NCBI GenBank assembly: GCA_963752595.1
Contig: CAVVYZ010000005.1
Location: forward strand, 64,001-128,000
Reading direction: 5' to 3'
DNA: 64,000 nucleotides
Source of the DNA: an uncultured delta proteobacterium
GTDB taxonomy: Bacteria > Desulfobacterota > Desulfomonilia > UBA1062
The translations under genes were made by a program, and so were the position numbers. The notes under the pieces are model-generated. The model had not been told where the DNA came from and made no database searches. It saw only the letters and a list, made by a program, of their open reading frames with translations. How positions within the stretch are numbered: position 1 is the first letter of the stretch; each line of letters begins with the position of its first letter. Shown here in pieces: positions 17,977-49,170 of this stretch.

Positions 17977-19482
17977 TTAGTCTTCAAAGACGTTTGCCTG
18001 CGGCACCTGGGGTGCGATAAGGCACTTGAAAGTATTGAGCCGGTTGAGCTGGTTGGTGCCCTCGTAGATCTGCAGAAGCTTGATGTCGCGGAGCATCTTC
18101 TCTACCCCGGCATCCTGACGCAACCCCGTAGAGCCCATGAGTTCGATGGCCATCTGGCAGTTGTGTACGCCGATGTCCGTGCCGGCGAATTTCGCCAGAG
18201 AAGCCCAGCCCGAGCAGCACAGCTGGTCCTGAGGCTTTGCCCAGTCATAGTAGAGCTTCCGCATGAACTTTCCGGAAGATTCCGTATCAAGGGTCGGCGC
18301 GACCACTTTATCGAAGTAGGCCTGGGGCATGAGACGGAAGTAATAGTAGAGGGGCTTGAGCTGGAGGAGCCTGTACATGCCGCGAAGGCTGTTGGCGTAG
18401 TTCGCTTCCACATAGGCGAGCCTTCCCAGTGCGACGTTCTTGTACATCTCGGCAAGCAGGCATTGCACCCACTCGCTTTTTACGAGGAGCTTACCGTTTA
18501 CCGTAGTCGTCGATGCATAGTTCAGAGCTGCCTCAAAGGCTCCCCGTGCGACGCCGACCCCGAAGGCGCATACGCCGGGACGCGTTGCCGAAACCACGTA
18601 GTCGATGTAGCGCTGGGAGAGGTCCTTCATGGGCTTTTTCGAGATCTTCTTCATCAGATCCGCACTGAAGAGCACCTGGTCGTCCGGGATGAAGCAGTCT
18701 TCGAAGATGAGCACGCTGGCAGGGCATACCCGCTGGCCCATCTTGTTTTCATGGGTACCGAAGGAAAAGCCCTTGGTGCCTGTCTTTACCATCATGCCCA
18801 CGCCCGACACAGAAGGCTTCTTGAGGTCGGAATATGCAAGGAGTACGGTCCAGGTCGACACGTGCCCCATGGAGATGAATACCTTGGTGCCGTTGACGAT
18901 ATAGCCGCCATTGACCTTCTTTGCATGGCAGCTGACCTTGCCCTTGTCTACGAGATCCACCTCTTCCACATCGGTTCCCGCACCGGGCTCGGTGGTGGCA
19001 AGGGCAATGAGACAGGGCTTGCCGGTCTTCTCACCTTCCACGACCTCGCTGATGACCTTTTTTGCCAGGGCCGGGTTGGCCGAAGCGATCAGCCCTGCCA
19101 CGCCGAGGTAGTGGACGCCGATGACGTTCATGATCCCGACACAGACAGAACTGACTTCTTCGGCAAAATAAGACATGGAAGGCATGCTGCTCCCCTTGCC
19201 TCCGAACATCCTGGGTATCCACTTGGTGTAGAAGCCCCATTTATTGGCGATGTCGACGAGCTCCAGGGGCATGTAATCAGGGTCTTCGTGGGTCTTCCGG
19301 TCGAGTTCGAGGGCCCTGGGCCTTGCCACTTCTTCATTGAACTTGCGGGCAAGGGCAATGACCTCCTGTATCTCCTTGATCATGTGCTTCGGCATGCGCG
19401 GGGCATACGGCAGGCTCAAATGGATGTCCTCGAACTTCGGAAAACGGGACAGTCTGGCCGATACTTCAGATCTGGACAGCAT
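17977..19482 (-). CDS. Acyl-CoA dehydrogenase (with internal insertion)
   Basis: TTEPGAGTD, NGTKVFIS, ENKMGQR, QIYEGTNQ; start chosen from the AGGAGG RBS. Confidence 0.9.
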   Translation of the reverse strand: MLSRSEVSARLSRFPKFEDIHLSLPYAPRMPKHMIKEIQEVIALARKFNEEVARPRALELDRKTHEDPDYMPLELVDIANKWGFYTKWIPRMFGGKGSSMPSMSYFAEEVSSVCVGIMNVIGVHYLGVAGLIASANPALAKKVISEVVEGEKTGKPCLIALATTEPGAGTDVEEVDLVDKGKVSCHAKKVNGGYIVNGTKVFISMGHVSTWTVLLAYSDLKKPSVSGVGMMVKTGTKGFSFGTHENKMGQRVCPASVLIFEDCFIPDDQVLFSADLMKKISKKPMKDLSQRYIDYVVSATRPGVCAFGVGVARGAFEAALNYASTTTVNGKLLVKSEWVQCLLAEMYKNVALGRLAYVEANYANSLRGMYRLLQLKPLYYYFRLMPQAYFDKVVAPTLDTESSGKFMRKLYYDWAKPQDQLCCSGWASLAKFAGTDIGVHNCQMAIELMGSTGLRQDAGVEKMLRDIKLLQIYEGTNQLNRLNTFKCLIAPQVPQANVFED

Positions 19483-35380: not shown

Positions 35381-35935
35381 TCATATTTGTCTGAGCTCAA
35401 ATTCGAAGGTGCTGACAACCCGGTTTTTTCAATGGCATACTGGTAGGGCTATAGGGTGCAGATTCATCATTTCCATCACTTCCGAAAATCCGGATTGTAC
35501 CCTGGTTGGCAGAGCGGATCTTGCCGACTCGTGCACCGGAATCTGAGGCAAACTGCTGGGCCGTCATGCGTGCATTCTTTGTAGCGTCGGCGAGGAGCTG
35601 AGGCCGCAGGGCATTAAAGGCAGTGATGACATATCGGGGATCGGCTGTCCCTCCTTCCTGTTGGCCGTCCAGGACTACGCCGGACTTGAGCAGCTCTTCG
35701 GTTGTCCCCACTGCTTTTGTCACGAGGTCGACCTTTGAAGTTGCCACAACCAGATTGCCCGGTCTGCCTTAACCTCTTTTTCCACCAATCCCTTGACAGT
35801 AACCGTTCGAGTATCAGACTTAAAGCGTGCAGCGCCCTTCCCAATGAAGTATCCTCCGAGCGTAAGCCCGGCGAGAAGACATACACCCACGATCATTGCT
35901 GCCACCAGCATGCTATGGTTTCTATCAGATGTCAT
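35381..35935 (-). pseudogene. SIMPL-domain protein remnant (internal deletion and frameshifts)
   Basis: RTVTVKGLVEKEVKAD N-part joined out of frame to ATKNAR..AQQFA.DSG..VGKIRSANQG..RVVSTFEF C-part. Confidence 0.7.
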
Positions 35936-36104
35936 ACTGTTCGCTCCTCCTTCCGGAGTTATCCCATGTCCAACGGCACAGATCACCCGGCACCTGCAAG
36001 CATAAATTATTTGTTAAGATCTCAATATACACTTTTCACAGGAACAGGGAAACGCCCGTCTATCGCAGCTATGTTCACTCTCAACGCGGTGAATCTCAAC
36101 AGTT

Positions 36105-36874: not shown

Positions 36875-38182
36875 GGTTAAGTCTCTATAGTTCTGTAAAA
36901 AGGTAAAACGAGCCAAGAGCAACTCCGATAAAGCGAAGTGACCAAACAAACGCTTGAAGGAGGAGCAGATGGCTCGCAGGGAAGATGATAAGGATTTATT
37001 GGGTATTTGGCAAGAGGCGACGGTGCAAGGAGACGATGGTTTGCGGAGAGTAATGGAATCGGCAATACAAAGGATCCTTGAAGAAGAACTGACCTCATTT
37101 CTCCAGGCAGAGACTCAGGAACGGGTACAAGCCGAGGGCATTGATGACCCGGCTGGGACGGATGGAGCTTCTGGTGCCCAAGGACCGGGAAGGCCGGTTT
37201 CAGACCGAACTCTTCGATCGATATCAAAGGAATGAGAAGGCATTGATGCTGTCATTGGTAGAGATGTACGTGCACGGGGTATCGACCCGGAAGGTCAAAG
37301 CAGTTACCGAGGCCTTGTGCGGATTAGACATATCGAAGAGTCAGGTATCCCGGTTGGCGAAAGACCTGGACGAGGAAGTAAAGGCATGGAGAAGTCGTCC
37401 ATTGAAGAAGTCCTATCCGTATCTGGTGGTGGACGCCCGATATGAGAGGATAAGAATCAATCATCAGGTATTACCGCAGGGTGTTCTTCTGGTAGTGGGC
37501 ATAGGAGAGGATGGGTATCGTGAGATCCTGGGCACCTGGGTAGCCGATTCCGAGAACGAGGCGAGCTGGTCTGAGGTATTCAAGGAACTCAAGGAAAGAG
37601 GCCTCAATGGTGTACGGTATGTGGTGTCTGATGATCATGCCGGTCTTGTTAAAGCCATTGGAAGGCACTTTCAGGGTTGTCTGTGGCAGCGATGCCAGGT
37701 TCATTTTCTCCGCAACATCATTTCTCAGGTCAGCAAGAAGGATCGGCCCAGGATCATAGAGATGGTCAGGGACATCACGGCTGCACAGAGCTATGAGATT
37801 GCCCGTAAGCGGATGGATGAGGTCATCGAGGCCTTGGAGAAGACTCATCCAAAGGTATCTCAGATGCTCGACGAGCATGGAGAAGAGATTCTTTCTGTCT
37901 ACCAACTGCCTCTCCATCACCGGAGATCGATGAAATCCACGAACATGCTGGAGCGGTACAATCAGGAACTGAAGCGCAGAACTAGGGTAGTTCGCATTTT
38001 TCCTCATCAGGAATCCTGCCTCAGACTGGTGACTGCCATGGCCATGGAAATGAGTGAAGAATGGATGGTCCGCCGATACCTCATCTTCGAAGATGGGGTA
38101 TCGGATAAGAACATAAAAGATCAGCTGGCTGCTTAATGCTTATGTCGGAGATTGCAATTTACAGACAATCGGGGACTTGACT
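36875..38182 (+). mobile_element. IS256 family insertion sequence (1308 bp) with 8-bp target duplication
   Basis: Imperfect terminal IRs GGTTAAGTC..TCTGTAAA / TTTACAGA..GACTTGACT; direct repeat CCGCGACT at 36867-36874 and 38183-38190. Confidence 0.92.
36969..38136 (+). pseudogene. IS256 (Mutator-type) transposase with small N-terminal deletion/frameshift
   Basis: MYVHGVSTRKV, YLVVDARYE, VVSDDHAGL, WQRCQVHF, STNMLERYNQELKRRTR; frame breaks near 37115 just before RNGY. Confidence 0.85.
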
Positions 38183-38257: not shown

Positions 38258-38635
38258 GAGGCTGTCGGAAAAGTCCGAAGACTTCTTATGGAATATTTCC
38301 TAATAATTTCTTGCTAATGCCATTATAGCCTATTTCATGTGAGAAGGACCTCATCATCTATTTGAGCAGGGGGGAGCAGAGCTTTCGGCGTAGCCGGAAT
38401 GTGACAGCGGCAGCCGCTCTTGCTGAGGAACCTTATTGAAAGGTATATTAACCGTATGAAACATTTCAGATCCCTCGCAACTCGGTATGATAAATCAGCT
38501 TCAAGCTATCGGACCTTGTGGACCATTGGTGCTATACTCCTATGTCTCTAGCTTTTACTTTGCGTACAGCACCTAGATCATTCTGTGAGGTCGTTTTCTG
38601 ATCACCATTGATCATTTTACTTTTTCGACAGTCTC
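38258..38635. mobile_element. Degenerate IS1182-type element ends enclosing an IS5 fragment
   Basis: GAGGCTGTCGGAAAAGT ... ACTTTTTCGACAGTCTC inverted ends; right part shares CATTCTGTGAGGTCGTTTT with the 147-bp MITE. Confidence 0.6.
38426..38576 (+). pseudogene. IS5 family transposase C-terminal remnant with right end
   Basis: RNLIERYINRMKHFRSLATRYDK...; ends GTACAGCACCTAG. Confidence 0.75.
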
Positions 38636-38694
38636 TATAGATATCTGCACATTATCCTATTCATCCTATTCAAGAAATAGCTCATATCTTCATG

Positions 38695-38841
38695 GAGGCT
38701 GTTGAAAAACTCCGGGAAGTGCAAAAACTATCAAATCGGGACCATCAAAACACAAGCCTCGATCAATAAATTTCCAATGTCGGGCATTCTGTGAGGTCGT
38801 TTTTTTGTCACTTTTCAACCTTTTAGTTTTTCAACAACCTC
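38695..38841. mobile_element. 147-bp MITE (IS1182-type ends), copy 1
   Basis: GAGGCTGTTGAAAAACT...AGTTTTTCAACAACCTC terminal IRs; flanked by ATG/ATG; identical to 42650-42796. Confidence 0.88.
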
Positions 38842-38904
38842 ATGGGATATCTGTAGTACTAGTCAACGCTGGAAGGTTCAAAGTATATCAATTTTAATGA
38901 ATAT

Positions 38905-38966
38905 GTCTGTAATAAGTGTTATACATAAATATATGCAGAATTAATTCTGCATGTCCATTGTTCGAA
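38905..38966 (+). other. attI-like site / first cassette junction (G|TTCGAA)
   Basis: GTTCGAA at 38960-38966 is the exact complement of TTCGAAC closing cassette 1; preceded by GTTATAC and the perfect palindrome ATGCAGAATTAATTCTGCAT (38933-38952). Confidence 0.6.
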
Positions 38967-38981
38967 TCATAGGAGTATAGC

Positions 38982-39611
38982 GTGGGATACACTAAAAAGG
39001 ACTGGGTAGCACGAATCCGCGAACGTACAGATATGAGCACCCTCTTGACTCATCTGACCAAAGAGGGTCCGGATGGTAAAATTTCTAGGGAGGTCCTTCT
39101 TAAGATATTACTTGAGCAACGGCTCATAGGGAGTACAAGTACTCAAGGATTCATTTGCGGTGACACTCCTGCGGTATGCTTCCAAGATGCTCCTCTTTAC
39201 TCGATTGCTCAGAACACGCTATTCGAGCAGAAGATGCGCCAAGATCGCAAATCATCAGTTGTCCGCTATAGGCCTCTTGGGTTAGCTTTCCCCAAACCAT
39301 ATCTCTACATGAAAGGGGCACGGCCAGTTGTGTACGATGATACCGAAAATGCAAAGAGGTTTCTCCCAAGAAATGAATGGTGGCGCATCGTTCGGCTTGA
39401 TCTTTCAAATGAGAATGCCTTCGTGGATTGGACTCATGAACGTGAGTGGCGGCTTCCTGGAAATCTTGAATTCAACTTGAGCGAGGTTACTTTACTCGCA
39501 GTCGACAATGAGGCAGTGAGTAATATCGCTGCGCTATATATGAAGGAAACTGGCAGGGAGATTAGAGACGAGATCGGAGGCATAGTGACCATGCGAGATG
39601 TTCTCTACTGA
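38982..39611 (+). CDS. AbiGi/DUF2971-like ADP-ribosyltransferase-fold protein (cassette 1)
   Basis: LTHLT, VCFQDAP, GLAFPK..GARPVVY, DWTHEREWR motifs; GTG start with AGGAG RBS. Confidence 0.68.
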   Translation: MGYTKKDWVARIRERTDMSTLLTHLTKEGPDGKISREVLLKILLEQRLIGSTSTQGFICGDTPAVCFQDAPLYSIAQNTLFEQKMRQDRKSSVVRYRPLGLAFPKPYLYMKGARPVVYDDTENAKRFLPRNEWWRIVRLDLSNENAFVDWTHEREWRLPGNLEFNLSEVTLLAVDNEAVSNIAALYMKETGREIRDEIGGIVTMRDVLY

Positions 39612-39624
39612 TTAGGACTGGAGG

Positions 39625-39681
39625 TTCGAACAAGCTAATTCAGCGGACGGCTTACATCCGCCGCTGATCCGCACGTTCGAT
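39625..39681 (+). other. Integron attC site 1
   Basis: R'' TTCGAAC, L'' AATTCAGC, stem GGACGG/CCGCC, L' GCTGATC, R' GTTCGAT; just after the ORF stop. Confidence 0.88.
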
Positions 39682-39721
39682 GCATGAGAAAAAGATACTG
39701 CCAGGCTTATGGAGGTGACCA

Positions 39722-41023
39722 GTGTCAGTAGCCGATATGTTTTCCGAGTTCATTGCCAATCTTGCGATCGACAACTCTGAAACGATCAGCTCACGTTACG
39801 GTGAACTGACCACGGCACTAAACAAGGCATTCCGGGACACAGAGTCGAAGACTGCAAACACGCTTCAAGTTGGATCGTTCGGAAGGAAAACTGGCATCAA
39901 AGGTATTTCCGACTTGGATATGCTTTATCTCATGCCCAAGTCAAAGTGGGACGCCTACAAAGACTCTAAGCAGCTCAAGCTTCTTCAGGATGTGAAGACA
40001 GCCATTCTCAATCGATATCCAAAAACTGACGTTCAGGTTGATCGGCTTGTAGTAACCGTCACCTACACGAACTTTTACGTAGAGGTGCAGCCCGTATTCG
40101 AGCAAGATGATGGAAGCTTTAAGTATCCTGACACGAAGAATGGAGGCGTATGGAAGACCACCAAACCACGAGAGGAAATGAATGCTATTGCAGAATTGGA
40201 CACGTGGAAGAACTCAAACCTTCGTCGACTCTGCAAAATGGCTCGCGCATGGAGGAATAAGCATGGTGCCGGAATGGGGGGCCTCCTTATCGACACGCTT
40301 GCATACAATTTTCTTAAGTCGACAAGCGAGTATGATACAAAGAGTTTCCTTTACTATGATGAACTCAGCCGGGATTTCTTCGAATATCTCTCTGAACTCC
40401 CCAAGCAAGACCGCTACGACGCTCCCGGAAGCAAGCAGCATGTCAAAGTCAAGAAAGCATTCCAACGAAAAGCAGCGAAAGCATATCGCCTCTGCGTCAA
40501 GGCAATTGAGGCGGAAGGCACAAAGGGCGTTAACGATAAGTGGAAGAAAGTATTTGGACGCCCATTCCCCGCTAACGCCGAACTGACAAAAGAGGTCGTC
40601 CTCGCGAATAGCACAGCGACTTGGGACGATACTGAGGAATTTATTGAAGACCGATACCCCGTCGACATCCGCTACACACTTAAGATTGACTGCGACGTAA
40701 AACAGAACGGCTTCCGCGAGGACCGCTTAAGCGCGATGCTCGCAAAGATGATTCCTTTGCTAGCGAAGAAAACACTCGAGTTCGAGATTGTGCAGATAGA
40801 TGTGCCAGGGAAGTATTCGATTGAATGGAAGGTTCTTAACAGAGGAGAGGAAGCCCGCAGGCGTAACAAAATAAGAGGGCAAATTGTCCGTGATGATGGA
40901 TCTCACACGAAGATTGAACCAACCTCTTTCAAAGGCGACCACGTTGTCGAGTGTTATGCAATAAAGAATGGAGTGGTTGTAGCGAAAGATCGAATCCACG
41001 TGCCAATCAGTACAAACGGTTAA
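39722..41023 (+). CDS. CBASS CD-NTase: SMODS nucleotidyltransferase with C-terminal AGS-C domain (cassette 2)
   Basis: GSFGRKTGIKGISDLDML catalytic motif, VEVQPVF..YPDT..GG.WK.T.P; C-terminal EEFIED..WKVLNRG.EA..IRGQI..E.T.F.G.H.VECY (AGS-C). Confidence 0.9.
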   Translation: MSVADMFSEFIANLAIDNSETISSRYGELTTALNKAFRDTESKTANTLQVGSFGRKTGIKGISDLDMLYLMPKSKWDAYKDSKQLKLLQDVKTAILNRYPKTDVQVDRLVVTVTYTNFYVEVQPVFEQDDGSFKYPDTKNGGVWKTTKPREEMNAIAELDTWKNSNLRRLCKMARAWRNKHGAGMGGLLIDTLAYNFLKSTSEYDTKSFLYYDELSRDFFEYLSELPKQDRYDAPGSKQHVKVKKAFQRKAAKAYRLCVKAIEAEGTKGVNDKWKKVFGRPFPANAELTKEVVLANSTATWDDTEEFIEDRYPVDIRYTLKIDCDVKQNGFREDRLSAMLAKMIPLLAKKTLEFEIVQIDVPGKYSIEWKVLNRGEEARRRNKIRGQIVRDDGSHTKIEPTSFKGDHVVECYAIKNGVVVAKDRIHVPISTNG

Positions 41024-41027
41024 TGCC

Positions 41028-41603
41028 ATGAAGAAAGAAGACATCCTTAGAAACATAGCCGAAACAGGGTATAATGTAGGCTTTGGTGCGAAGAAACACT
41101 TCGCTACGTACGACATTGTGGCAAAAGTTCCTGGTCTAATTGGTTTTGCATCGACTGCAGTTGGTATCTTCGCCCTCTTTATAGATTTTCTCTCCACGAA
41201 GCATCTATCCGCTGCGTTTATAGTCTTTGGTGTTGCGGGACTTTTCATCAGCCATTACGACCATAAAAAGCAGAGCTATGCGGACGCAGGAAGCGAACTT
41301 ACCGTACTATTTAACCGACTAAAGGCGCTTTATTTCAACGTAAAGGGGACCGATGCGCGCGATCTCAACGAGTTCGAAAATGAGCTGGTGAATATTGAAC
41401 ATGATTATTACGCTAAATGTATAAGCGAGCAGATCCTCTTTAGTGATTGGTATGCTCACTACAAGTTCTTCTGGCAGCACCAAATTGGTTGGATCGAAGA
41501 GCAGAAGCGATTTCGGTTCTTTCGCGATAAGGTACCGCTTAGCCTTATGGTGACGATTCTTTTTGTGGTGATCGTATCTGGTTTGGTTATCTGGTTGGGT
41601 TAA
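41028..41603 (+). CDS. SLATT-domain transmembrane CBASS effector (cassette 2)
   Basis: IAETGYNVGFGAKKHFATYDI, two TM helices, helical region, SDWYAHYKFFWQ, terminal TM; starts 4 bp after the cyclase stop. Confidence 0.85.
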   Translation: MKKEDILRNIAETGYNVGFGAKKHFATYDIVAKVPGLIGFASTAVGIFALFIDFLSTKHLSAAFIVFGVAGLFISHYDHKKQSYADAGSELTVLFNRLKALYFNVKGTDARDLNEFENELVNIEHDYYAKCISEQILFSDWYAHYKFFWQHQIGWIEEQKRFRFFRDKVPLSLMVTILFVVIVSGLVIWLG

Positions 41604-41631
41604 AAAAACCATTAACGGTTCATAGAGCGGC

Positions 41632-41686
41632 ATCGAACAAGGCGGCGGACGCCGACAAGTCGCGCCGCTGAGCTTAAACGTTACTC
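41632..41686 (+). other. Integron attC site 2 (L'' box appears partly deleted)
   Basis: R'' ATCGAAC is the exact complement of GTTCGAT at the cassette start; GCGG..CCGCTGAGCTTAAAC; R' GTTACTC. Confidence 0.8.
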
Positions 41687-41699
41687 CAGGAGTCTGAAA

Positions 41700-42506
41700 G
41701 TGCCATCTTGTAAAATATGTAGAGAAGCTATTTTCGATGGTATTCATCTTTCCGATGGTGAGATGATCCATGAATCGTGCTTGAAAAACATTCAAGGCAA
41801 GGAAAAGGAAGTTGAAAACTACATATATGCACAGAAAGATAAATTGAAAAGGCTTAGGCAAGAAATTGAAAGACGTGAAGGGTTGGGATTTAAGATTATA
41901 TCAATATTTTCAAAGCCTGACATTGCTACCTTTGACATAGAAAGGGAAATTCCAACAATTGAGAAAAATATTTCTAGTTTGTCCAACAACTTGATATCCT
42001 TGCAAGCTTATACCACTTCTATTTACGATTACTTTCTTTCATATCCCCCTGATTGGGAAAAAAGAAGACGTCAAGTAATAGAAAGAGATGGTGAGCAATG
42101 CAGTGAATGCGGGAACGGGGGGCATCTTCACTTACACCATATCAAGCCCTTATCTAAGGGAGGCAGTAATAAAATATCAAATTTAAAACTGCTATGTGAA
42201 AATTGTCACTCGGAAGAGCACTGTGGGCGAAATTTCTCTGGTGAGTTTAACAGTTCGGAAACAGCATTTTCTAAACGTTTAGCAAATATACGATATGCCA
42301 TAGACAACGGAAAGCGTATTAAATTTAGCTACATGAAGTATAACGAAAAAAGCTATAAACAAAGAACCGTTAAGCCAGCTGAACTTGTAAATTTAGACCA
42401 TCATAGAGATAGTGGATCAACTCTTTGTGTTCGTGGATATTGTGAACTAAGGGAAGCGGAACGCGTATTTGCATTAAAGCGAATGAAGGGCCTGAAAGTA
42501 TTATAG
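41700..42506 (+). CDS. Zn-finger/coiled-coil/HNH endonuclease/WYL fusion protein (cassette 3)
   Basis: CKIC..HESC; coiled coil; YPPDW..RDGEQCSEC..HLHHIKPLSKGGSNKISNLKLLCENCH (HNH); AIDNGKRIKFSY..RTVKP..RGYCELREAERVFALKRM (WYL). Confidence 0.82.
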   Translation: MPSCKICREAIFDGIHLSDGEMIHESCLKNIQGKEKEVENYIYAQKDKLKRLRQEIERREGLGFKIISIFSKPDIATFDIEREIPTIEKNISSLSNNLISLQAYTTSIYDYFLSYPPDWEKRRRQVIERDGEQCSECGNGGHLHLHHIKPLSKGGSNKISNLKLLCENCHSEEHCGRNFSGEFNSSETAFSKRLANIRYAIDNGKRIKFSYMKYNEKSYKQRTVKPAELVNLDHHRDSGSTLCVRGYCELREAERVFALKRMKGLKVL

Positions 42507-42530
42507 GCATAACAAGCCCATCAACTCGGA
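42507..42530 (+). other. Truncated attC half-site
   Basis: GCATAACAAGCCCATCAACTCGGA immediately after the stop; no matching L'/R' half visible. Confidence 0.55.
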
Positions 42531-42649
42531 TAGGGGATTTCCCCCAGGAATAGATCTCAATAAGCACCAAAAAGTAGTTATCGGAATGGTCAAAACAATT
42601 GGCAGGGCTCAAAACCCTTCATATTGTTTTTAGTATACACATTATCCTA

Positions 42650-42796
42650 GAGGCTGTTGAAAAACTCCGGGAAGTGCAAAAACTATCAAATCGGGACCAT
42701 CAAAACACAAGCCTCGATCAATAAATTTCCAATGTCGGGCATTCTGTGAGGTCGTTTTTTTGTCACTTTTCAACCTTTTAGTTTTTCAACAACCTC
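42650..42796. mobile_element. 147-bp MITE (IS1182-type ends), copy 2
   Basis: Identical to 38695-38841, same orientation; flanked by TA/TA. Confidence 0.88.
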
Positions 42797-45432: not shown

Positions 45433-47376
45433 TCAGCCTTTTCCCTTGTCGTGAGGAACGATGATCTTGATGGTTGCCGAACTCTGGTTGCCGGCTGTGT
45501 CTGTTGCATAGATCGTGATGGTATACGTTCTCCCGATACCGGACCCTGATCGTTCAGACCTGAGCTGCAGGGTGATGATCCCTGTCTGCTGGTCGATGAC
45601 CGGGGTGATCCAGTCAGGTGATACATCGCCATCTCCCAGACCGTCTTCCGGCTCATTGCTTGTCACTGTGGCGGACAGGCTTACGGGCATCCCACTCGAA
45701 TCGAATGCATTGGCCACGATGTCAACGGTTACCATCTTGTGGTTCGGTGGCCACAGGATGCCTGTGTCCGCGTAGGGGGCGAGGGTCGGGGCTGTGGAAT
45801 CGATGACATTCACGGTAGTCTGCGTGCTGACAGGGTCATTCACGCCATCGCTCACGGAAAGGGTCAGCGTATGCTGGCCGAGCATCAGGCCTGATGCCGT
45901 ACAATACGGGATCTGAACAGGGCTGCCTGCAAGTATCGACTGGATGGTTCCAGAGCATATAGTCTGGCCGTCCGCTTTCCATTCGTAGCTCAATACATCC
46001 CCGTCAAAATCGGAAGCCTCTCCGCTGAGGAACACGTCCGCGCCGTATTCATACGTCCCGCCGCCTCCCAAGATCGCCGCATGGGGGGCTGAGTTGTTTA
46101 AGGTAAAGATCATGGTGTCGGAGGCGCTTATCACCCCGTCCGTTACCTCGAGGGTAAGGGTGTAGGTGCCGGGCGGTATTTGGGCGCCCTGCGGGACAGT
46201 GAGGATGCAGTCCATGTTCTGGCTGACCGGAGTCCATCCGAGGAGCATGGTCTGCCCGCTATACCATCGGTAGGTGAGCGGCCTGGAGCCGTTGTACTGG
46301 GCCTTCCCATACATGGTTGTGCCATAGAGATTTTCACTGTACACGGTGATGTTGGGTCCTGCGTCTGCGGATATCTGAATGACAGGGTCGGGCAGGATGG
46401 TGATCGTCATCGTGTCTGTGGAGCTTTTCACCCCGTCCGTCACCTCGAGGGTCAGGGTGTAGGTGCCGGGCGGTATTTGGGCATCCTGCGGTATGGTGAG
46501 GTTGCAGCCCATGTTCTGACTGACCGGAGTCCATCCGAGGAGCATTGTCTGACCGCTATACCACCGGTAGGTGAGCGGCCTGGAGCCGGTGTAAATTGTC
46601 TTCCCCTGAATGACGGTATTCGGTAAATCCTTTACGTACACGGTCATGTCAGGCCCTGCATCTGCTGTGAGTTCTGTGGGAACAGAGATCGGACTGAGAT
46701 CGAGCTGTGCGTAATCAAAGGCGATAAAGGGCTCTTCCGGGGCAACGATCTCAATCGTCACCACCCCATCCAGCATATCCGCCCAGGGCACCTCATAATA
46801 CGCTCGCCAGATGAGTCCATCCTGAAAAGTCCCTGCGGAAGAATTCCCACTGAGAATCACCTGCTGACCTTCCACAACTGCATACATGGTTCCCACATCA
46901 TAGTCAGCATAGAGAAAACTGACATAGTGATTCTTTCCATAATCCGCATCACCTGGCTCAGGAACAGCAAAGGTAAAGGTGAAATAGGCATCGTCTGCGA
47001 TTCCCGGGGGATTGTAAAGCAGGGGAAATTGCGTATGCATCAGATCAGCATAAGCAGACAGGGTTATATCCGTCCATCGTGCACCGTTTGAAGGATCCTT
47101 TTCCGAAGCAGAACGGTTGTCGAAGACATCCCCGATTTCCCCTGACTCGAGCTGCATATCCCCGTCCTGATCGATGTCCGGGAGCACGTCGCCGGCTCCG
47201 AGGATGCCGTCGCCGTTTCTGTCTGCAGGGAGCCCGTCGAATCCGAGAAGGGATGATGCATTGGTATAACCAAAGCCATCGATATCCCCGATTACAACTG
47301 ATACAGCATGAACATCCATGCAACTTAAAAACACCATGAGTCCAAATAGAATACTGAACAACCTAACTTTTTTCAT
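45433..47376 (-). CDS. Secreted protein with Ca-binding DxDxDG motifs, PKD/Ig-like repeats and LWPPNHKM C-terminal domain
   Basis: Signal peptide; DRNGDG/DIDQDGD; ADAGP..LTYRW..GTYTLTLEVTDG repeats. Confidence 0.8.
   Translation of the reverse strand: MKKVRLFSILFGLMVFLSCMDVHAVSVVIGDIDGFGYTNASSLLGFDGLPADRNGDGILGAGDVLPDIDQDGDMQLESGEIGDVFDNRSASEKDPSNGARWTDITLSAYADLMHTQFPLLYNPPGIADDAYFTFTFAVPEPGDADYGKNHYVSFLYADYDVGTMYAVVEGQQVILSGNSSAGTFQDGLIWRAYYEVPWADMLDGVVTIEIVAPEEPFIAFDYAQLDLSPISVPTELTADAGPDMTVYVKDLPNTVIQGKTIYTGSRPLTYRWYSGQTMLLGWTPVSQNMGCNLTIPQDAQIPPGTYTLTLEVTDGVKSSTDTMTITILPDPVIQISADAGPNITVYSENLYGTTMYGKAQYNGSRPLTYRWYSGQTMLLGWTPVSQNMDCILTVPQGAQIPPGTYTLTLEVTDGVISASDTMIFTLNNSAPHAAILGGGGTYEYGADVFLSGEASDFDGDVLSYEWKADGQTICSGTIQSILAGSPVQIPYCTASGLMLGQHTLTLSVSDGVNDPVSTQTTVNVIDSTAPTLAPYADTGILWPPNHKMVTVDIVANAFDSSGMPVSLSATVTSNEPEDGLGDGDVSPDWITPVIDQQTGIITLQLRSERSGSGIGRTYTITIYATDTAGNQSSATIKIIVPHDKGKG
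46131..46667. repeat. Intragenic tandem duplication, 297-bp period
   Basis: 46131-~46370 closely matches 46428-~46667 (SRPLTYRWYSGQTMLLGWTPVSQNM occurs twice). Confidence 0.85.
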
Positions 47377-47609: not shown

Positions 47610-48121
47610 AAGAAAACTCCATTCAGATATGTAAATTACTTTATTGGACAATGCGCTGAATAATCTTCTTAGAGGAAGGTACCTGAGATGCTAGTTAAAC
47701 TCATGGAGGAAAACCTACAGTCTAGAAAGAGATGCAAGATCTATGCTATATGTTCACTGATTAAATATCTATTAATATTAAAGAAATAAAACCTAATAGT
47801 TGCCCCATAGACCTCCTGTGGAGAAATATTCTTCCGCAAAGGTGGAAAATAATTTGTCAGATCTTTCTGTAGGGGGACGGGTTAGGGGATAGGGGACGGA
47901 GGGTAGAGTGAAACTGACTGCGGTACGCCTGTCGGGACTTTCATTAACGCCTTGTCTCACCGGAGTATCTACCTCATCAGTCTCCCCTCATCAAACCGTA
48001 CATATTGTTCTCCAACAACTGCTTTTCCGAGTGACCAGACTCTTTATGTCAAAATAGGTCTTATAGGAAGTCAATATTCCTTGAAGTTATCTCTAGTCTG
48101 CTAATACATATGATCTCATCA

Positions 48122-48788
48122 GAGGGTGTTGAAAAACCCGTTTTGGAAGATGTACTTGTATCCCTGAACCGACCCATGGGAGGTCGTCATTATCGCTGAC
48201 TCGTTATCCGTCATGTTGCTCTTGATCTCCTTGCCTTTCTTCCCACCCTTCCCGTCGTTCTCCTCAAGCCATGCCTTTATCCGCTGTGCCTGCTTCGTGA
48301 GTTTCTCGATCTGCTTTTCCTTGCTGCTCCCGGATGGGGGAGGCGGATCATCATCCTTCCTGTCTTCATCCTCCTGCTCCTTGAGCATCTGCCGCACCTT
48401 CTCTTCGATCCGGGCCTTCTTCCGCTTCAGATCGGAGACCTTCCCGCTCCACTGCTTCGAAGCATTCGATGGAAGCTTGCACCCGTCCCGGGCAAAAAAC
48501 GTCCCGCCTAAAAGTTCCAACTCCTCACATACCAGCAGAATGTTCCTGAACAACGGCAGGATCTCGTCCTTCATGGTGGGGACAAACGTGGCTATCGTCG
48601 TATGATCCGGGCATTGCCCGCAGGATAAGGCCATGAATACGATATTCTCACGGCAGGCCTGCTCGATCTTCCTCGATGAGATCAATCCCCGAGAGTATCC
48701 CAGCAGCACTACCTTCAGCAGAATCTTCGGGTCATAGGCCGGACTGATAGCTTCCTTGAGACTTTCTGGGGACTTTTTCAGCAGCTTC
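48122..48788 (-). mobile_element. Internally deleted IS1182 family element
   Basis: AYDPKILLK..SSRKIEQAC..PDHTTIA..TDNES..GY transposase fragment between ends GAAGCTGCTGAAAAAGT and TTTTTCAACACCCTC. Confidence 0.82.
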
Positions 48789-49170
48789 TTCGAAGATCTC
48801 AACTGGCGGGAGATGAATCCTCAGTTTAAGTCCCTAAAAGAATTAAAAGATCCGAGGGGATCACAAATCGAACAAGCTGTATGTACGATAACTTCTTGAC
48901 TAAAGCAGTTTTTTTGCCTAATCAAATCTCAACTATTACGGCTTAAGATCCGGTCGGACATTCTTCAGAAAGATGACCACCTGGCGCACTCAGATCGGAT
49001 CATAGCTGCTACTCCCCCGATATCACGGAGTAAATATCATTCCATAAGGCTTCACAGATGTTGCATACATACAAATGACTTCGTCACAATTACTCGTCGG
49101 CATCAAGCTTTCATGGTTGAGAAATGGCGATCCCTGCGTGCTCGATTCACGTCCATTGGGAGTGAATCCT

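Follow-up and report, generated by a model that had tools for sequence, protein, structure and literature searches.

How did a short run of integron cassettes carrying defence-type genes come to lie between two identical MITEs (miniature transposable elements with inverted repeats), no integrase lying beside it, and can it still move? The question is raised by a locus in a 64,000-nucleotide stretch of DNA, hereafter the window, from an uncultured delta proteobacterium of the Desulfobacterota (assembly GCA_963752595.1; G000:C5:64001-128000 in the numbering used here). The source genome, G000, comprises 4.1 Mb in 31 contigs and is 84% complete with 6.8% contamination; it was compared with 121 other genomes of the class and 11 other genomes of the genus, and 40 genomes of relatives were examined for an allele empty of the array. 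A sequence-only reading of the window had proposed an array that might move, or be lost, as a unit bounded by the MITEs. The picture that emerges here as probable is that of a three-cassette array without an adjacent integrase, carrying a type I cyclic-oligonucleotide-based antiphage signalling system (CBASS) and two likely defence genes, in which the second attC has suffered a deletion and the third a truncation, so that the cassettes with the CBASS and the HNH-WYL gene are likely fixed where they are, and the two MITEs are likely separate insertions. The cassette junctions, the state of each attC, the domain content, the presence of an integrase gene (intI) elsewhere and the 3-bp rule of MITE target duplication were observed directly.

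The array consists of four co-oriented open reading frames (ORFs; 209, 433, 191 and 268 amino acids) in three units between the two repeats, as the sequence-only reading had it, and both junctions that it had singled out hold good, GTTCGAA at 38960 with TTCGAAC at 39625 and GTTCGAT at 39675 with ATCGAAC at 41632 each being complementary at 7/7 positions. The attC sites that it had placed between the units fared differently. The first is real and intact, reaching 54 bits (E 5e-11) with our own covariance model; its R''/R' and L''/L' boxes fold on the bottom strand, as required of an integron attC, with a z of -4.94 that 0/200 shuffles equalled. The second is not intact: it scores 12.2 bits (E=1), 52/200 shuffles fold as well as it does (z -0.53), and its AAC-to-GAC distance is 9 nt as against 14-15 nt in 20/22 other listed sites of G000 (one of the two exceptions has an earlier GAC and the other lacks the AAC), the gap falling in L'' by alignment. 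Past ORF4 the model finds no match, and a half site is present whose R'', GCATAAC at 42507, is complementary to GTTACTC at 5/7 positions and whose 3' arm is absent. Since the folded attC has two boxes to which the integrase binds, the L box among them (PMC5027507; here and below, published work is cited from the portions of text available), attC2 is likely dead for recombination, to judge from its letters. With attC2 internally deleted and attC3 truncated, the CBASS and HNH-WYL cassettes are therefore likely locked in place.

The absence of intI from the window is confirmed, and contig C5 as a whole has no match to TIGR02249 or PF00589. The term integrase-less fits the locus and not the genome, in which a full intI accompanied by an array was found on contig C20 (C20:132916-133845; 457.8 bits against a cut-off of 265). 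An insertion sequence (IS) lies between this complete gene and its attI (L025:3496-4620). Further attC clusters of G000, from a scan in which 150 of 1379 candidates were scored and 33 of them matched, lie on contigs C13, C16, C2 and C26, and intI matches occur in 8/11 other genomes of the genus. By most of the features tested, the array is a small CALIN (an attC-site cluster that lacks an integron integrase) with defence cassettes, as had been called from the sequence and as attC1, the junctions and the lack of intI on C5 support. It is accepted that IntI might act on CALINs in trans (PMC4889954, PMC9668308, 10.1101/2025.06.18.660453). Like the CALINs and single attC sites lacking an integrase (SALINs) of PMC4889954 and 10.1101/2022.09.11.507474, the array has co-oriented, attC-bounded cassettes, no intI nearby and, at a distance, an intI capable in principle of serving it in trans; it differs from them in having one scoring attC of three and a conserved leader in common with another species. 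Because only one of the three attC would score, a two-site CALIN threshold may miss it.

Features of the array and of its immediate surroundings (window positions)
Feature	Position	Strand	Description and basis
IS256-family element (context)	36875..38182	+	Pfam Transposase_mut and NF033543 above cut-off; own 8-bp target duplication
Older IS1182-type non-autonomous element (context)	38258..38635	+	378 bp; right end 81% like MITE
12-bp direct repeat, left copy	38648..38659	+	Two copies only in genome; brackets whole array
MITE1	38695..38841	+	147 bp with ends of IS1182 type; ATG as its own 3-bp target duplication
Leader ending at cassette 1 GTT	38884..38962	+	attI-like by position, identity unproven; 81% match to G004:C17
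Cassette 1 gene (ORF1)	38982..39611	+	209 aa; predicted ADP-ribosyltransferase fold of DarT-like type, related to AbiGi/DUF2971; lacks a partner gene; homologues, predicted structure
attC1	39625..39681	+ (recombinogenic strand = -)	Intact; fold and covariance model
Cassette 2 gene 1	39722..41023	+	433 aa; fusion of CD-NTase (SMODS) and AGS_C; domain profiles, motif
Cassette 2 gene 2	41028..41603	+	SLATT_6 effector with two transmembrane segments (2TM), 191 aa; domain profiles
attC2	41632..41686	+	Damaged; ~5 nt of L'' box gone
Cassette 3 gene (ORF4)	41700..42506	+	268 aa, with Cys/His Zn site, long coiled coil and HNH nuclease, and WYL at the C-terminus; domain profiles
attC3, 5' half	42507..42541	+	R'', spacer, L'', apical hairpin; right end approximate
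12-bp direct repeat, right copy	42638..42649	+	Abuts MITE2
MITE2	42650..42796	+	Identical to MITE1; flanks CTA left, TAT right, overlap 2 bp only

Cassette 2 has the appearance of an intact type I CBASS, in agreement with the sequence-only reading. Its proteins match Pfam SMODS (6e-45), AGS_C (1e-50) and SLATT_6 (5e-74), and PADLOC recognizes the cyclase at 659 bits and the 2TM effector at 288 bits; the NCBIfam model cyclase_b gives 110.6 bits, below its cut-off of 200. The cyclase carries the GSFG...DLD motif and the third acidic residue, the general motif of CD-NTases being hG[GS]x9-13Dh[DE]h. The SLATT_6 protein has two hydrophobic segments, and the effector adjoins the cyclase with no Cap2/3 or HORMA genes, the composition of a type I system. 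EcCdnF04-SLATT6 is the same two-gene operon, a SMODS and AGS_C cyclase followed by a SLATT_6 effector with two transmembrane segments, and type I operons of CD-NTase-SLATT6 make-up give E. coli protection (10.1101/2023.05.21.541620); by analogy, cassette 2 would synthesize a cyclic nucleotide and confer phage protection. In the congener G006 the same cyclase (82% amino acid identity) is found as a cassette with an intact attC on both sides and a Gabija cassette upstream (G006:C41, L015:1721-3691). Whereas the window pairs this cyclase with SLATT_6, G006 pairs it with an unrelated 2TM effector, and similarity stops just past the cyclase stop codon, an effector swap behind one cyclase inside an integron cassette.

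The assignment of the cassette 1 protein, ORF1, to the ADP-ribosyltransferase (ART) fold is supported by its predicted structure (pLDDT 88), for which the top matches in both structure searches were all DarT, though at middling scores, at 9-13% identity and with no DarG-type partner. The family comprises 306 homologues, with weak AbiGi matches in 63/103 members and with H24, T26, E153 and E155 invariant, in H-x-T and E-x-E motifs; comparison with PDB sequences gave nothing up to E=1, and PADLOC and NCBIfam gave no match. Homologues adjoin attC matches in 8/80 loci, on both sides in 3. No macrodomain or NADAR antitoxin occurs in cassette 1 or, by Pfam, among the 98 of 132 nearest homologue neighbours scanned, which were mostly on the same strand; 13 defence-type domains, counted by reading and without a background control, were seen among these 98, and no constant partner. 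The adjacent antitoxin that marks a DarTG toxin-antitoxin system is lacking in the cassette. The nearest tested precedent is Aristaios, an anti-phage single gene with DUF2971 and an ART fold (PMC11381338, PMC13064643); ORF1 is likewise a single-gene unit, of 209 amino acids against 316. These features suggest a defence role for ORF1.

The HNH-WYL protein, ORF4, belongs to a family of 152 homologues, and its domains suggest a putative defence role. Its homologues lie beside attC-model matches in 3/34 loci; in several, inspection by eye picks out an R''-like motif past the stop. At L110/L111, 3' of an HNH-WYL gene, such a motif past the stop is followed by AT-rich DNA that is not attC and contains a weak 20-bp match to the leader. 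A WYL regulator of the CapW/BrxR kind was considered for ORF4 and rejected: the WYL domain matches, and the N-terminus consists of the Zn site, coiled coil and HNH domain, with no helix-turn-helix (HTH).

All three systems are rare in the class, homologues being present in 0/121 other genomes for ORF1, 1/121 for the cyclase and 1/121 for ORF4; a plasmid collection gave 13 matching records, in the cyclase region only, and zero of them carry the array. Sedentary as well as mobile integrons are known to hold defence cassettes (10.1101/2024.07.02.601686), among them brc135, a CBASS-like type I cassette of two ORFs from mobile integrons (10.1101/2024.07.02.601719). The window shares with these reports compact systems of one or two genes and differs from them in being an integrase-less array of three cassettes; the ART-fold and HNH-WYL families are not named in the text of the two papers that was searched.

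The two MITEs are as they had been described from the sequence, identical at 147/147 positions, exactly 147 bp long, directly oriented and with IS1182-like ends. These ends, GAGG(C/T)TGTTGAAAAA, are common to IS1182-type remnants and match a 1885-bp IS1182-type element on C2 and a remnant at 48119-48802 over 16-18 bp; together with the lack of an ORF and a target duplication of fixed length, such shared terminal inverted repeats characterize IS1182-derived MITEs. A transposase remnant of IS1182 type with a MITE-like terminal repeat occupies 48112-48802 (-) of the window. No full-length IS1182 transposase above the family cut-off was found in the 84%-complete genome, the one on C2 being broken. 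A third copy of the MITE, 98% identical and differing from both window copies at about three positions, stands alone on C20, and three further copies of the genome are 77-82% identical. Among relatives, the target duplication is 3 bp in 13/16 copies of 145-148 bp, a set from which two longer pairings reusing a left end were dropped and in which some copies have common flanks and are not all independent; the target is loosely palindromic. In G000 itself a 3-bp duplication accompanies 4/7 paired elements. Of the small duplications that the earlier reading had noted, the ATG of MITE1 is of the length typical of the family, 3 bp, and the TA of MITE2 falls short of it. Insertions have a hot spot at this locus: directly to the left lie an IS256-family element, with intact ends and a transposase split across two frames, and the older IS1182-type element. 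In relatives, two 80%-identical MITE copies in direct orientation stand 1.2 kb apart at G064:C43:78958-80323 (L239/L216), each having a separate 3-bp duplication set in a target that is repeated, next to a gene that we take to be pilin-like; at G004:C4 (L181:1-240) an IS1182-type element starts directly after the GTT of an attC in the G004 integron.

The idea that the two MITEs acted as a composite transposon and brought the array in draws on their complete identity and direct orientation around the leader and all cassettes, on the lack of a 3-bp duplication belonging to MITE2, and on the MITE-flanked class 1 integrons of Acinetobacter (PMC3934969), which likewise have identical direct MITEs around cassettes. 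Known MITE composites, however, carry one target duplication, outside the pair, and the Acinetobacter ones show it at 5 bp (PMC3934969), whereas the outer flanks in the window differ (ATG and TAT) and MITE1 has an ATG of its own that follows the 3-bp rule of the family. The signature of a composite transposon, one duplication outside the pair and none inside, is consequently missing, and matching flanks crosswise between MITE copies gave no reciprocal pair. The 12-bp repeat moreover puts 35 bp of array-side DNA outside MITE1, and the solitary copy on C20 and the missing transposase also speak against the idea, which is very unlikely; the mobile unit proposed by the sequence-only reading is not borne out. 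The two MITEs likely landed separately, and loss of the array through homologous recombination between them is possible in principle. The same 12-bp repeat, which lengthens to 13 bp once MITE2 is taken out together with its TA, raises another scenario, in which recombination at this 12-13-bp core brought in the leader and the cassettes together, as a single 4-kb block, and the MITEs came later. The 12-mer occurs at only two places in 4.1 Mb, 17/20000 shuffles reach at least 12, and in the genome G004 the leader stands at the head of an array that adjoins a phage-type integrase and tRNA-Met, that is, as island cargo. Yet the repeat was found post hoc, after many looks, in AT-rich DNA near elements that prefer similar targets, and the block ends show no integrase or terminal inverted repeats, nor was an empty allele found; arrival as a block is unlikely. 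That the picture is in part an assembly artefact, either because copies of the repeat were collapsed or because the 5-nt gap of attC2 is false, is highly improbable: an assembly of 31 contigs with the contamination given above, holding identical repeats, does invite misjoins, but the C20 copy differs from both others, each copy has target-like flanks of its own, all four ORFs are full length against their homologues, and the G004 array also contains a collapsed attC.

The array is headed by a 76-bp leader, which recurs in G004:C17 with identities of 31/40 and 28/40 (0/500 shuffles) and with no similarity before or after it; the homology ends at the GTT, and different cassettes follow in G004, which in these two genomes is the position expected of an attI. 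Its neighbour in G004:C17 is a phage-type integrase at tRNA-Met and not intI. The array behind the G004 leader (L170:9097-12400) comprises an HTH-HNH gene, a collapsed attC, a 219-aa gene, an attC and a further gene, presumably ADP-ribosylglycohydrolase-like. Among the 121 other genomes of the class, G004 gives the one convincing leader match; four others are weak (19-40 nt), and one of these, on inspection, had no array. That the leader is a copy of the C20 attI was considered and rejected, as the two do not match.

Other arrays without intI are headed by copies of intI-linked attI types, namely those on C16, C13 and C26 of G000, C15 and C18 of G004 and C8 of G007. The C16 and C13 heads in G000 are of the C20 type, and that of C26 is of the type found with the C2 intI pseudogene and with the G004 integron; G000:C16 (~18440-18830) and G004:C15 (L249:7774-8109) have 337 bp in common up to the GTT and no common cassette DNA. 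Heads of attI type without an intact intI were also seen at G000:C13:107309, C26:46168, C2:220278, L259:6321 and L264:4490; they are of two attI types, one in common with the C2 intI pseudogene. Partial attI sites within mobile-integron arrays have been described (PMC12901181), and current tools look for class 1-3 attI sequences only (PMC4889954). Orphan attI sites heading CALINs were not found in the literature searched, in which coverage of subscription papers was thin and supplements lay outside the search.

It is conceivable, and we propose it tentatively, that several integrase-less arrays of this genus are 'satellite integrons', each headed by its own orphan attI and loaded in trans by one IntI, the 76-bp leader being a third attI type, so far unlinked to an integrase, that captured defence cassettes later fixed by attC decay. 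Alternatively, the leader may be no attI, the cassettes having been inserted at a secondary GTT of the attG type or being a fragment split off a larger integron. IntI inserts cassettes at 5'-GWT-3' sites of the genome, and small CALINs and SALINs may so arise (10.1101/2022.09.11.507474); the leader showed no clear attI likeness, and attC3 is cut as a break would leave it. Insertion at attG sites falls almost at random, yet in two species whose cassettes differ it is this 76-bp sequence that stands before the crossover GTT, at identities that shuffles did not reach and with nothing similar past the GTT, and this alternative is somewhat unlikely.

Several observations weigh against the orphan attI, and against the wider picture of a defence array fixed by attC decay. 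The leader matches none of the attI regions beside 27 family integrase loci beyond shuffles, except for a weak score with one, and both leader GTT sites rank only in the top 1-2% (1114 and 1922 of 91,129 GTT sites) by a weak nine-site matrix. A promoter scan gave 13 sites against 9.0 +/- 2.9 in shuffles, none of which stands out. Expression of the C20 integrase is not assured, because an IS separates intI from attI. The attC covariance model was built by ourselves from 13 attC sites outside the window, is tuned to the genus, is not that of IntegronFinder and misses long attC sites. MITE2 and two other G000 elements have no clean 3-bp duplication, which could mark rearrangement. The best fold match of ORF1 is middling (Z 8.0, rmsd 4.8, 9% identity; Foldseek E 0.014), and neither ORF1 nor ORF4 matches a complete PADLOC system. 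Lastly, no empty allele was found in the 40 relatives, where the left and right flanking genes sit in unrelated contexts, and the order of events is therefore a reconstruction.

By that reconstruction, the array would have been put together by IntI, acting in trans, behind its 76-bp leader. Cassette 1 would be the latest arrival and the sole one still excisable, by recombination of the leader GTT with attC1, and attC decay afterwards may have fixed the remaining cassettes. The AT-rich ends would have gathered the IS256 element, the older element of IS1182 type and, recently, two copies of the MITE, which favour a palindromic target. The array is likely decaying into a fixed defence island rather than standing ready to move as a unit with its MITEs. 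In operation, phage infection is predicted to trigger the CD-NTase, whose cyclic nucleotide would activate the SLATT_6 membrane effector and lead to abortive infection; the ART-fold protein would be a single-gene ADP-ribosylating abortive-infection factor, possibly acting on DNA, and the HNH-WYL protein would cut DNA once its WYL domain binds single-stranded nucleic acid.

Integrase-less arrays of defence cassettes are already known, and this one is an ordinary instance. It nevertheless yields two single-gene defence candidates with an integron provenance, a lone DarT-like ART and a sensor-nuclease of Zn/coiled-coil-HNH-WYL architecture, and would serve as a natural snapshot of cassettes locked through attC decay. 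If the leader were indeed an orphan attI, the CALINs of this lineage would be live capture sites and not only remnants, which bears on the question of CALIN origin, and current tools, limited to class 1-3 attI, would not see such sites.

An Rfam scan of the window gave zero families above threshold. To the left of the array, at 35391-35986 (-), lies a SIMPL (DUF541) gene broken in pieces, an intact homologue of which is found about 3.6 kb past the final attC that scored in the G004:C15 array. To the right, at 45433-47376 (-), a secreted-looking protein of 647 amino acids is encoded, with an internal 297-bp repeat whose copies are 87% identical.

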